Position numbers and translations under genes: made by a program | Shown here: piece after piece, positions 16,715-17,075 of the stretch | Numbering within the stretch: position 1 is the first letter of the stretch | Layout of the letters: each line of letters starts with the position of its first letter | Notes under the pieces: model-generated | The model's database searches: none | Told to the model about the DNA's origin: nothing | Seen by the model: only the letters and a program-made list of their open reading frames with translations | Origin: a virus | UHGV virus genome: UHGV-0149439 | Strand: one strand, 5' to 3' | DNA: 29,037 nt

Positions 16715-16733
16715 ATTGATAATCATTATCAAT
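16715..16733 (+). promoter_or_regulatory. Fur box-like palindrome ATTGATAATCATTATCAAT upstream of the TonB-domain lipoprotein gene
   Basis: Core GATAATCATTATC is identical to the 3' 13 nt of the 19-bp Fur consensus GATAATGATAATCATTATC; the aligned 19-mer (16712-16730) matches 16/19; sits over the likely -10 region. Confidence 0.6.
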
Positions 16734-16745
16734 TGAGGGTTGGCC

Positions 16746-17075
16746 GTGAGAAAAGGATTTGTTTGCGTATTTTTCCTCTGCACCTTTCTTATGGGGTGTA
16801 GTGGTCATGTGGAAAGTAATCGACCAAAACTGCTGACCTCTGCATCTCCAACATATCCATATTATGCGATGGCGAACAGGATAGAAGGCTTTGTGGAGGT
16901 GAAATACGATGTCGGGAGTGACGGGATGATTTCAAAAATCTGGATTATGAAATCTGAGCCACAACATCTTTTTGATTCATCAGTTATTTCAGCCATGTCG
17001 AAATGGCGTTATGAAAAAGATAAGCCGGCCCGTGGAATGACAAAGAGAATTCAGTTTAAGTTGCGGTATTTGTGA
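16746..17075 (+). CDS. Lipoprotein consisting of a TonB C-terminal-like domain (about 109 aa)
   Basis: Signal peptide with lipobox LMGC; PTYPYYAMANRIEGFVEVKYDVGSDG...SAMSKWRYE aligns closely with the TonB C-terminal domain pattern (P-x-YP...RIEG-V-V-FDV...DG...AM-RWRYE). Confidence 0.8.
   Translation: MRKGFVCVFFLCTFLMGCSGHVESNRPKLLTSASPTYPYYAMANRIEGFVEVKYDVGSDGMISKIWIMKSEPQHLFDSSVISAMSKWRYEKDKPARGMTKRIQFKLRYL

Follow-up and report, generated by a model that had tools for sequence, protein, structure and literature searches.

TonB-dependent receptors are the gates through which many phages, group-B colicins, siderophore-microcins and 'Trojan-horse' antibiotics such as albomycin enter the cell, and their exposure is greatest when iron is scarce, for instance in the inflamed gut. 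The promoters of tonB are Fur-regulated, as has been established for E. coli. One of the receptors, FhuA, is disabled from the periplasmic side by Llp of phage T5 and by Cor of phages phi80, N15, HK022 and mEp167, which protects the cell; to our knowledge neither Llp nor Cor is under Fur control. Artificial periplasmic TonB fragments were reported by Howard, Herrmann, Stratilo and Braun in 2001 (J Bacteriol 183:5885) to inhibit transport via FhuA and FecA. The Shiga toxin gene stx1, located in the late region, provides a precedent for prophage cargo that is controlled by Fur. At the molecular level, TonB boxes join strand beta3 in TonB's C-terminal domain (CTD) by beta-augmentation; phages T1 and phi80 require TonB, and group-B colicins bear TonB boxes themselves (PMC11658791).

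The stretch of DNA analyzed here, UHGV virus genome UHGV-0149439 (29,037 nucleotides, the window hereafter), comes from a temperate phage whose host is an enteric bacterium. It carries a short gene for a predicted lipoprotein with a TonB-like domain, which an initial annotation had placed, together with its upstream region, at 16715-17075, and these coordinates proved accurate. The elements that make up the locus are the following.

16708-16716, plus strand: candidate extended -10 element TGTTAGTAT (TGnTAGTAT), read by eye and overlapped by Fur box 1
16712-16731, no strand assigned: Fur box 1, with a 19-bp perfect palindrome ATTGATAATCATTATCAAT
16735-16739, plus strand: Shine-Dalgarno sequence GAGGG, read from the sequence, 6 nt before the GTG at 16746
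16746-17075, plus strand: TonB_C lipoprotein gene, 109 amino acids, with signal peptide and lipobox in codons 1-18 (16746-16799) and the TonB-like domain at around residues 27-106

The reading frame is open back to a TTG at 16740, the GTG at 16746 is the likely start, and the stop codon occupies 17073-17075. The encoded protein begins with MRKGFVCVFFLCTFLMGC, followed by SGH, and thus combines a basic n-region (MRK), a hydrophobic h-region (GFVCVFFLCTF) and the lipobox LMGC, which ends in Cys18 and is followed by a Ser at position +2. The lipobox that had been noted before therefore conforms to the pattern that we applied ([LVI][ASTVIM][GAS]C with the Cys at residue 15-35), and it was kept in all clades, in every full-length homologue examined, with Ser, Thr, Ala or Gly and never Asp at +2. 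According to the sequence rule for sorting in Enterobacteriaceae (+2 not Asp), Ser19 would direct the product to the outer membrane, where it is probably located. The N-terminus consists of the 18-residue signal peptide and does not include the transmembrane anchor of TonB; the tether between Cys18 and the domain measures only around 8 residues, and a proline-rich spacer is absent. The identical protein is recorded on 65 collection blocks, chromosome CP017665.1 among them.

A search with the TonB_C profile corroborated the proposal that the mature part represents a TonB C-terminal domain (PFAM: PF03544, E=1.8e-13, 51.2 bits at a cut-off of 24.6), as did TIGR01352 (47.4 bits at a cut-off of 27.1). 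The NCBIfam TonB models aligned residues 22-106 of the lipoprotein to TonB 158-242, and the protein stayed below the cut-offs of all NCBIfam TonB equivalogs, scoring 51-85 bits at cut-offs of 265-448 (best 84.5 versus 315). Phmmer searches against the PDB recovered the E. coli TonB CTD chains 1U07, 2GSK and 2GRX at E-values of around 3e-17 to 1.6e-16, with 40-44% identity to the CTD structures and zero gaps over E. coli TonB residues 152-235. The AlphaFold (AF2) model, with a mean pLDDT of 68 and around 80 across the domain, contains strands at 48-56, 62-71 and 98-104, the last being beta3, and helices at 38-43 and 77-89, and the top 12 Foldseek hits for this model were all C-terminal domains of TonB or of the TonB homologues FusB and TonB2.

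The protein is nevertheless not simply a free TonB C-domain, the term used in the initial annotation: a comparison of 28 distinct lipoprotein sequences with a dereplicated set of 72 distinct C-domains from chromosomal TonB delineated a lineage of its own, in which R158, R166, R177 and R204 are replaced. The YP motif (Y163-P164, corresponding to Y37-P38 in the lipoprotein) is retained, as are G174, G186, P198, F202, W213, R214, Y215, E216, K219-P220, G223 and F230. R166, an Arg in 100% of the chromosomal TonBs, is a Tyr (Y40) in 100% of the lipoproteins, and besides R166Y the switches L170N, A196S, N200H, M201L and E203D are fixed. R158 and Q160 correspond to S32 and S34; the former position is mostly Ser across the lineage, and the latter differs strongly between the lipoprotein clades. 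R177 and R204, which are invariant or nearly so in TonB, are lost and variable. R158, Q160 and R166 contact the receptor in the complexes with FhuA and BtuB, and their replacement means that the surface for binding has diverged; the loss of arginines that are invariant in TonB implies that the partner or the specificity may differ from that of TonB. This calls for caution when the protein is considered a decoy (see below).

The near-consensus Fur box that had been described over the likely promoter was recovered as well. The 19-mer site at 16712-16730, AGTATTGATAATCATTATC, agrees with the classical GATAATGATAATCATTATC at 16 of the 19 positions (3 mismatches), and positions 16717-16731 constitute a perfect 7-1-7 element, TGATAATnATTATCA (TGATAATCATTATCA). 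At three mismatches or fewer, 0.01 matches to the 19-mer are expected per window, two were observed, and none of the shuffled sequences reached that number. In comparison, 48 of the 57 chromosomal tonB promoters that were scanned as a control scored only 12/19 (GAATATGATTGCTATTTGC). Fur box 1 sits at -29 from the start codon, a position that is conserved in all clade A loci, and clade A as well as the Raoultella orthologues retain the candidate extended -10 as TG[TA]TAGTAT; a consensus promoter scanner called no plus-strand promoter at this element. The arrangement suggests that Fur represses the lipoprotein gene.

The canonical box was found only in the lineage of the window and in the chromosomal orthologues of Raoultella, where it shows one mismatch (TGAGAATTATTATCA). 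At the same position, the Klebsiella relatives have an altered palindrome with 7-4-7 spacing and the E. coli-type relatives another, 8-1-8 palindrome; the operator is altered in clades B and C, and no Fur box is found upstream of the phage 21 homologue. Considering that the relatives in Klebsiella, E. coli and phage 21 lack the canonical box, Fur control is not universal within the family. Between the window and the Raoultella chromosomal orthologues, 23 of 26 positions in the operator and extended -10 are identical, at a protein identity of only 49%; the operator thus still matches although synonymous divergence has reached saturation (pS 0.81) and the flanks are unalignable.

These data bear on the view that the gene is a decaying, functionless remnant of tonB beside a chance AT-rich palindrome, a view for which the labels 'TonB fragment' and 'Partial tonB-like membrane protein' in some records speak. 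The dN/dS ratio of the gene was 0.12-0.20 in five comparisons, which indicates purifying selection; furthermore, the lipobox occurs in all clades, the alignment is full-length and gap-free, the operator has been conserved where synonymous sites are saturated, and the Fur-box match is far from what chance would yield. To this can be added that the 44%-identical homologue LF82_160 (the 'TonB fragment' of prophage Perceval in E. coli LF82) was transcribed 8-fold above the prophage background in the lysogen (PMC9928086). We consider decay highly improbable; selection and the operator footprint effectively refute it.

The family is widely annotated. A word-indexed protein search gave 8 relatives of the lipoprotein, to which scans of viral contigs and an exhaustive search of representatives added more; a scan of genome contigs yielded mostly chromosomal TonB and few lipoprotein loci, and served as outgroup and Fur-box control. 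Among 5426 complete E. coli genomes, 417 carry the E. coli-type gene, and homologues are common in prophages of pathogenic E. coli and Klebsiella. Other annotations in use are "TonB family protein" and, for EHEC prophage CP-933N and phage 21, 'tonB-like'. A literature search on prophage TonB-like proteins retrieved annotations and one transcriptome table only, and no functional study of any member; a PADLOC search for anti-phage defence gave no match to the lipoprotein at E<=0.01.

The position of the gene within the phage genome is that of cargo, as had been proposed, and is defined by the following features.

16198-16473, plus strand: i-spanin gene (PHROG 1026, E=2.5e-31)
16424-16606, plus strand: o-spanin lipoprotein gene (MTILIASC...; PHROG 1275, E=5.4e-29), overlapping the i-spanin gene and called in the related locus L165
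16569-18047, no strand assigned: cargo block of 1.5 kb, from lysis cassette to cos/terminase, replaced by an unrelated 615 bp in phage Chris1
16669-17063, plus strand: minimal mobile unit of promoter/operator and TonB_C lipoprotein gene, from the homology limits in IMG/VR contigs

Upstream of the block are two holin genes (14746 and 15128), a GH19 endolysin gene (15564) and the spanin pair, and downstream are terS (18218) and terL (18740). The closest phage, Citrobacter phage Chris1, shows around 76-89% DNA identity on both flanks and lacks the block, and in 8 IMG/VR contigs (L005-L010 and L041; protein 81% identical) the homology to the window DNA starts and ends exactly at 16669 and 17063. 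All phage relatives examined, among them phage 21, the Stx1a phages, JLK-2012 and Klebsiella phages, hold a homologue in the same slot between lysis genes and cos. The lipoprotein gene is thus prophage cargo (a candidate 'moron') in a standard slot, absent from the closest phage. A near-identity DNA search with positions 16400-17700 gave zero matches in the phage collection and, in E. coli genomes, a single short match in the spanin-gene region (query 16401-16580), which indicates that the host is not E. coli; it was taken to be Citrobacter, given the relationship to phage Chris1 and the 88% homologue that Citrobacter sp. CK184 carries.

Adjoining the lysis cassette and having phrog_1267 of the lysis category, labelled 'Rz-like spanin', as its best PHROG match (E=1.3e-30), the lipoprotein could be regarded as a lysis protein, namely the outer-membrane subunit of the spanin. 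That identity was rejected as the cassette contains a separate and complete pair of i-spanin and o-spanin. Moreover, the gene has a candidate Fur-box promoter of its own, the block in which it lies is missing from Chris1, a phage that lyses all the same, and the domain is TonB_C and not of the proline-rich Rz1 type. A role as spanin is therefore extremely improbable.

In our opinion the best explanation, although we would put it somewhat short of an even chance, is that the gene is a phage/colicin exclusion moron, whose product would act as an unenergised TonB decoy that is tethered to the outer membrane and occupies TonB boxes. With iron plentiful, Fur-Fe2+ bound to Fur box 1 over the -10/+1 region would keep the gene off; upon iron starvation it would be derepressed alongside the host's tonB and TonB-dependent receptors, and be transcribed independently of the rest of the prophage. 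The product would then be exported, lipidated at Cys18 and, since +2 is a Ser and not an Asp, delivered by the Lol system to the outer membrane's inner leaflet. On its short tether, the complete TonB C-terminal domain would be positioned on the periplasmic side of this membrane, the place at which ligand-loaded receptors, and also incoming group-B colicins, are expected to present their TonB boxes. There, edge strand beta3 could pair with these TonB boxes, and since the protein has neither the membrane anchor nor the proline-rich rod of TonB it would obtain no energy from ExbB-ExbD and would be a dead-end competitor of TonB. As a result, TonB-dependent entry by phages (T1/phi80-like), colicins, siderophore-microcins and sideromycins could be lowered when the receptors are most abundant, at the expense of some uptake of siderophores and B12. 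Both the binding of TonB boxes and the exclusion phenotype are thus predictions from the domain, the signal and the operator. Other points against the decoy are the cost that a block of TonB imposes on an iron-starved host, and a strictly linked, cytoplasmic partner of 55 amino acids, for which the model has no role.

That partner belongs to a unit that exceeds what was originally recognized, as it also includes a nested ivy gene, a convergent gene (p55) and a second Fur box.

17127-17718, plus strand: nested insertion with ivy (CDS 17205-17627, CKPHNC motif), which brings along a 78-bp upstream region and a terminator of its own
17645-17664, plus strand: intrinsic terminator with an 8-bp stem and T7 run, 3' of ivy, ending the tonB-like/ivy transcript
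17709-17876, minus strand: p55, convergent 55-aa gene with Shine-Dalgarno sequence GGAG (PHROG 4843, E=1.5e-7, full-length alignment)
17877-17968, minus strand: 5' leader of p55, folded into two hairpins with CUUUUCGGAG after the second (MFE -38.8 kcal/mol, z = -2.1)
17968-17987, no strand assigned: Fur box 2, differing from the 19-mer at 3 positions and from the 7-1-7 element at 1

The ivy product is a lysozyme inhibitor (Pfam Ivy, E=1.3e-19; NCBIfam Ivy family, E=1.6e-33). No terminator was predicted at 17075-17205, so that read-through from the candidate Fur-controlled promoter into ivy is to be expected. This neighbourhood suggests another role for the lipoprotein, as cargo for fitness or virulence within the animal host. 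The Fur box would then signal 'we are inside an animal', and the lipoprotein, co-transcribed with ivy, would alter the envelope, for example through contacts with peptidoglycan or outer-membrane proteins or by tuning iron uptake, as a protection against innate immunity, and phages or colicins would not be excluded. In line with such a role, ivy follows immediately, bor adjoins the lipoprotein gene as cargo in phage 21, the homologues are frequent in prophages of pathogens, and the Raoultella orthologues, which are chromosomal and non-prophage, have the same operator and lie beside envelope-stress-type genes. Yet the linkage to ivy is not ancestral: the homology of locus L166 runs from 16669 to 17126 and resumes at 17719-17994, which identifies ivy as a later nested insertion, and ivy is also missing from the 81% clade. 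In addition, we found no known envelope role for an isolated TonB C-domain. Both the role as such and the envelope effects assigned to the lipoprotein appear quite unlikely to us.

The gene p55 adjoins a TonB_C lipoprotein gene in all 34 p55-bearing viral contigs, across lineages that are only around 40% identical. Compared with the window, its product shows 75% identity in L166 and 36% identity in phage 21, and the dN/dS ratio of p55 is 0.23; a word-indexed protein search with p55 gave zero relatives. Fur box 2 overlaps a predicted minus-strand promoter (TTAACT-16-TATCAT), L166 has a perfect TGATAATGATTATCA at this site, and the DNA homology with L166 begins at the box; relative to L166, the leader shows a compensatory change as well as a G-U change. 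An Rfam search of 16400-18400 (with an E-value threshold) returned terminator-like noise only, which indicates that no known sRNA is located at Fur box 2.

The linkage raises the alternative that the lipoprotein is a selective trap, or a paralogue of altered specificity, which would bind something else than TonB boxes in general and would confer immunity together with p55 and without a global shutdown of iron uptake. We regard this as rather unlikely, and the same holds for the candidate partners, which would be the TonB boxes on incoming colicins or on proteins of a phage, a single receptor, the C-domain of TonB itself (by heterodimerisation) or ExbD. The fixed switches and lost arginines on a conserved fold, the high variability of the Q160-equivalent between clades, the linkage to p55, and the Fur boxes, present on both genes in the window's lineage and on neither in phage 21, are all arguments in its favour. 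Against it speak the fact that beta-augmentation is mostly mediated by the backbone, and therefore poorly selective, and the absence of p55 from most lipoprotein clades (B, C and the 81% group of clade A). In its most complete form, the locus would be a Fur-gated prophage immunity module, composed of p55 and an outer-membrane TonB mimic with specificity altered by R166Y and the loss of the TonB arginines, a 'TonB-box trap'; this version we deem unlikely. The trap could catch colicins, microcins and TonB-dependent phages on their way in, or else one receptor class, without crippling siderophore uptake, and might work with, or under the control of, the co-inherited p55, which has a Fur box and a structured leader of its own. 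If true, it would represent a new class of exclusion at the level of receptor coupling, extending from phage 21 to the prophages of EHEC, Klebsiella and Citrobacter.

Should the more general reading as an iron-gated TonB decoy be correct, then a natural, prophage-encoded TonB mimic would open a new route of lysogen immunity, acting at the shared energy-coupling step and not at a single receptor. In Citrobacter, Klebsiella and pathogenic E. coli this could bear on phage therapy, on bacteriocin competition and on the susceptibility to conjugates of siderophores and antibiotics, and it would provide a function for a gene that is known only by its resemblance to tonB in CP-933N and the classical phage 21.

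In comparison with the known systems, the lipoprotein shares with TonB the TonB_C domain, without indels over 152-235 and with its core preserved along with the aromatic positions Y163, F202, W213, Y215 and F230, and its gene probably shares with tonB the control by Fur. It differs from TonB by the lipoprotein signal, through which it would be anchored from the side of the outer membrane, and by the replacement of the four arginines. The proposed action, that of an uncoupled TonB C-terminal part competing in the periplasm, resembles that of the artificial TonB fragments; these were engineered, soluble and overexpressed, whereas the protein described here is natural, lipid-anchored, diverged, phage-borne and apparently iron-regulated. 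Like Llp and Cor it is a small phage-encoded protein that is predicted to be an outer-membrane lipoprotein, but it showed no match to either family (Pfam TonB_C only; in PHROG, phrog_1267 and phrog_34172, the latter of unknown function), and whereas Llp and Cor hit one receptor, a TonB mimic would act at the shared TonB-box step. With lambdoid morons such as lambda bor the gene has in common the slot and, as proposed here, the principle of an autonomous promoter in the prophage, while the protein and its presumed target are different. The same architecture is found in the short chromosomal lipobox and TonB_C proteins of Gammaproteobacteria (around 105-135 amino acids; for example Raoultella L085/L086 and the representatives P0011, P0020, P0026, P0084 and P0090), which have the common signature PxYPxxA...G.V...YDV..DG...S.P..FD..V..A..W.[YF]E..KP. 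The two Raoultella genes even have a Fur-box promoter in common with the gene of the window, the difference being that they are chromosomal and the latter is borne by a phage.

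The prophage carries as cargo a gene for an exported-type lipoprotein that is under selection, possesses a full TonB C-domain and is preceded by a conserved, near-consensus Fur operator. The window as a whole is a temperate, lambdoid-type prophage; besides the features listed below it has genes for replication, an antirepressor and methylases of the Dam and Dcm types.

Features of the window
1657-2832, minus strand: integrase
4877-5569, minus strand: CI-like S24 repressor
14746 and 15128, late region: two holins
15564, late region: GH19 endolysin
16198-16473: i-spanin (PHROG 1026, E=2.5e-31)
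16424-16606: o-spanin lipoprotein, overlapping the i-spanin (PHROG 1275, E=5.4e-29)
16712-16730: Fur box 1, 16/19 against the 19-bp consensus
16746-17075, plus strand: TonB-like gene, 109 aa; likely start GTG 16746, stop 17073-17075, SD GAGGG 6 nt before the GTG
17205-17627: ivy CDS (Pfam Ivy 1.3e-19), with CKPHNC motif and signal peptide
17876 down to 17709, minus strand: p55 ORF, 55 aa, SD GGAG (full-length match to PHROG 4843, E=1.5e-7)
17877-17968, minus strand: p55 leader, between Fur box 2 and the 55-aa ORF
17968-17987: Fur box 2, the other near-consensus match of the window, one mismatch to 7-1-7, likewise within the cargo block; lies over a promoter predicted on the minus strand (TTAACT-16-TATCAT)
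18218, late region: terS, DUF1441 type
18740, late region: terL, lambda gpA-like

The initial annotation had placed the TonB-like gene between the lysis cassette and cos, and the gene indeed follows the spanins and precedes terS. Given the cosN-like sequence GGGGCGAGGAC at 18100-18110, similar to that of lambda, and the restart of homology to the closest phage, Citrobacter phage Chris1, at 18048, cos is probably located in this stretch. A third, weak 7-1-7-like site (TGATAATAATTCCCA, two mismatches) lies at 18048-18062, precisely on the Chris1 junction. The lysis cassette is complete, with an i-spanin and an overlapping o-spanin, and the chance that the TonB-like lipoprotein is itself a spanin is negligible; the label 'Rz-like spanin' of PHROG 1267, home of these TonB_C lipoproteins, represents an annotation problem. 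Elsewhere, two adjacent phage DNA methyltransferase genes, one of the Dam-type N6-adenine class (7670-8551) and one coding for 644 aa with an N-terminal C5-cytosine methylase domain (8544-10478), are probably anti-restriction cargo.

The N-terminus of the 109-aa product, MRKGFVCVFFLCTFLMGC followed by SGH, with Cys18 and Ser at +2, reads as a textbook lipoprotein signal, in line with the small lipoprotein described earlier. The TonB C-domain, for which a profile search had been suggested, was recovered by Pfam TonB_C (E=1.8e-13, well over the gathering score). The NCBIfam TonB equivalogs aligned residues 22-106 with TonB 158-242, at a score far under their whole-protein cut-offs because sequence N-terminal of the TonB domain is lacking. 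Among PDB sequences, the mature protein aligned without gaps to E. coli TonB 152-235 at 40-44% identity (1U07, 2GSK in complex with BtuB and 2GRX in complex with FhuA; E about 3e-17 to 1.6e-16). The AlphaFold model (mean pLDDT 68, about 80 across the domain) displays the expected order helix-strand-strand-helix-strand, with beta3 at residues 98-104, and a structure search with it returned TonB C-domains as the only matches. The mature protein is thus predicted to consist of the Cys and an entire TonB C-terminal domain, joined by a tether of around 8 residues. Five comparisons gave a dN/dS of 0.12-0.20 for its coding sequence, and so purifying selection, which makes the annotation 'TonB fragment' misleading and leaves a negligible probability for a decaying piece of TonB. 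The Citrobacter sp. CK184 protein (P0005; locus L166, 3937-4267) was deposited as an 88-aa product with an internal Met as its start, yet the complete ORF from the GTG, lipobox included, is intact.

Fur box 1 includes a perfect 7-1-7 at 16717-16731 (TGATAATnATTATCA), itself the core of a 19-bp palindrome (ATTGATAATCATTATCAAT). At up to 3 mismatches, 0.01 matches are expected per window, versus two observed. E. coli tonB is Fur-regulated, and the tonB promoters of 57 chromosomal loci served as positive control for the scan; a conserved box, GAATATGATTGCTATTTGC, was present in 48 of these and scored only 12/19. The site in the window is thus much nearer to the consensus than a box that is accepted as functional. 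A near-consensus Fur box over the likely promoter had been proposed; the box stood, whereas the promoter, an apparent extended -10 (TGnTAGTAT, 16708-16716) overlapped by Fur box 1, was assigned by eye and not called by a consensus promoter scanner.

The most telling comparative result is the footprint of this operator in Raoultella. R. planticola and R. ornithinolytica possess a chromosomal, non-prophage orthologue (49% identical; L085 3977-4312, and L086) whose lipobox is LISAC and which shares extended -10 and Fur box with the window; it lies between predicted genes for a multi-pass membrane protein and for a Gly/Ala/Ser-repeat-rich secreted protein. The lipoprotein family thus extends beyond phages. 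The upstream block, TGATAGTATTGAGAATTATTATCAAT, is identical to its counterpart in the window at 23 of 26 positions, while flanks and signal-peptide codons are unalignable and synonymous sites saturated (pS 0.81); in this alignment the extended -10 and the Fur box stand out as a phylogenetic footprint.

The identical protein is present on many assemblies, including the 4.75-Mb chromosome CP017665.1. In Chris1, which is homologous on both flanks, 16569-18047 is replaced by an unrelated 615 bp, identifying the region as optional cargo. Among IMG/VR and GenBank phages four clades of homologues were discerned, every one carrying a lipobox and occupying the lysis-cos slot.

Clades of homologues (identity to the window protein; occurrence; element before the start codon)
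Clade A: 81-96%; window-like, and Salmonella 270-kb plasmids; perfect 7-1-7 at -29 in every locus
Clade B: about 62%; Klebsiella phages, Shimwellia; both half-sites, TGATAAT and ATTATCA, separated by 4 nt instead of 1
Clade C: about 49%; Stx1a phages, JLK-2012, CP-933N; a different perfect 8-1-8 palindrome, AGAATAAGaCTTATTCT, at the Fur-box position
Clade D: about 40%; phage 21, Perceval; no box

The clade B element, at -38 from the start (L001, L011-L040), can alternatively be read as three hexamers, GATAAT GTTGAT TATCAT (14/19); that of clade C lies at -35 (L003, L042-L083). In both clades the operator may have been retuned or passed to another regulator. The clade C gene occurs in 417 of 5426 complete E. 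coli genomes. For the clade A members with 81% identity, DNA homology to the window spans exactly 16669-17063, so that promoter/operator plus gene constitute the minimal mobile unit. Homologues were also recovered from large plasmids, namely the 270-290-kb plasmids of Salmonella enterica (H43-H46, 81% identical) and 376 Klebsiella plasmid records, with 60-63% identity or lower in Klebsiella and Pantoea; these may be phage-plasmids or contain integrated prophage segments.

The unit proved larger than first described: the TonB-like gene and Fur box 1 were confirmed, and a second Fur box, p55 and ivy belong to it as well. The product of ivy is a prophage-borne Ivy-family C-type lysozyme inhibitor. 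In CK184 the Fur box 2-p55 element directly follows the TonB-like gene, and ivy is therefore a nested later insertion (17127-17718) between two Fur-boxed genes, with its own upstream region and terminator (17645-17664). Since no terminator separates the TonB-like gene from ivy, the latter may be iron-regulated through read-through. Homology in CK184 starts at the Fur box, there perfect (TGATAATGATTATCA), and the p55 ORF is kept (dN/dS 0.23). The conserved, basic p55 protein, whose PHROG 4843 is annotated as of unknown function, adjoins a TonB_C lipoprotein gene in all 34 viral contigs that encode it. It has no gene call in L164-L166 and phage 21, the latter having an unannotated homologue (36% identical) in the same convergent position (L002 3408-3584, minus strand; OL657228 about 42294-42470; MVSKSKAHCRRM...). 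This homologue overlaps the annotated plus-strand hypothetical CDSs CPT_21_74 and CPT_21_75, which may thus be wrong. Fur boxes occur at both the TonB-like gene and p55 in the lineage of the window, and at neither in phage 21. The p55 leader is predicted to form two hairpins (17880-17945, minus strand; MFE -38.8 kcal/mol, z = -2.1), the second followed by CUUUUCGGAG, a terminator-like arrangement abutting the SD; in the consensus fold of two sequences the SD GGAG is base-paired to a CUCC stretch. No Rfam match was obtained for the leader; its candidate roles on these folds are attenuation, translational switching and production of a short RNA (about 85 nt) under Fur regulation.

In a neighbour-joining tree (no bootstrap support) the lipoproteins form one clade, apart from an outgroup of 72 distinct, dereplicated chromosomal TonB C-domains of Enterobacterales. 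According to the column statistics the fold-defining residues are kept (P153, L156, P161, Y163, P164, A167, G174, V176, V178, G186, P198, F202, V206, W213, R214, E216, K219, P220, G223 and F230). Position R166 is Tyr in 100% of the lipoproteins versus Arg in 100% of the TonBs, other fixed switches are L170N, A196S, N200H, M201L and E203D, and the TonB-invariant R158, R177, R204, N190, S195 and G218 are missing. An exhaustive representative search yielded about a dozen more 50%-identity clusters (105-135 aa, lipobox and TonB_C), implying that the phage genes form one branch of a broader, as yet uncharacterised family.

Enterobacterial lipoproteins without Asp at +2 are sorted to the outer membrane. 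Howard et al. reportedly found in 2001 that periplasmic TonB fragments inhibit transport by FhuA and FecA. Receptor TonB boxes bind beta3 of the TonB C-domain by beta-augmentation, T1 and phi80 require TonB, and group-B colicins carry TonB boxes (PMC11658791). Upon iron limitation, Fur would leave the promoter of the TonB-like gene and the lipoprotein would build up at the outer membrane, on its periplasmic side, where it would occupy exposed TonB boxes as an unenergised competitor and so hamper phages, colicins, microcins and sideromycins whose entry depends on TonB. We put forward this decoy mechanism tentatively, at slightly under even chances. Against a simple decoy stand the arginine surface, diverged from TonB, the cost that iron uptake would pay, the p55 partner that it leaves unexplained and the non-canonical operators in other clades; a variant of the mechanism with altered specificity, or with a partner, is unlikely, and slightly less likely still is an envelope role that serves the bacterium inside its animal host. 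The homologue LF82_160 of prophage Perceval is transcribed in the lysogen, 8-fold over prophage background (PMC9928086).

Existing annotations read 'TonB family protein', 'tonB-like membrane protein encoded within prophage CP-933N' and, in phage 21, 'TonB C-terminal domain protein'. The family is not in PADLOC, and no functional or regulatory study was found in the full-text literature, although one may exist as most subscription journals fall outside that coverage. The Fur linkage, the operator footprint, the family-specific substitutions and the p55 partnership appear to be new. Like Llp and Cor, the protein would be a prophage lipoprotein moron that protects at the level of the receptor; it differs from these in that it would act through mimicry of TonB.
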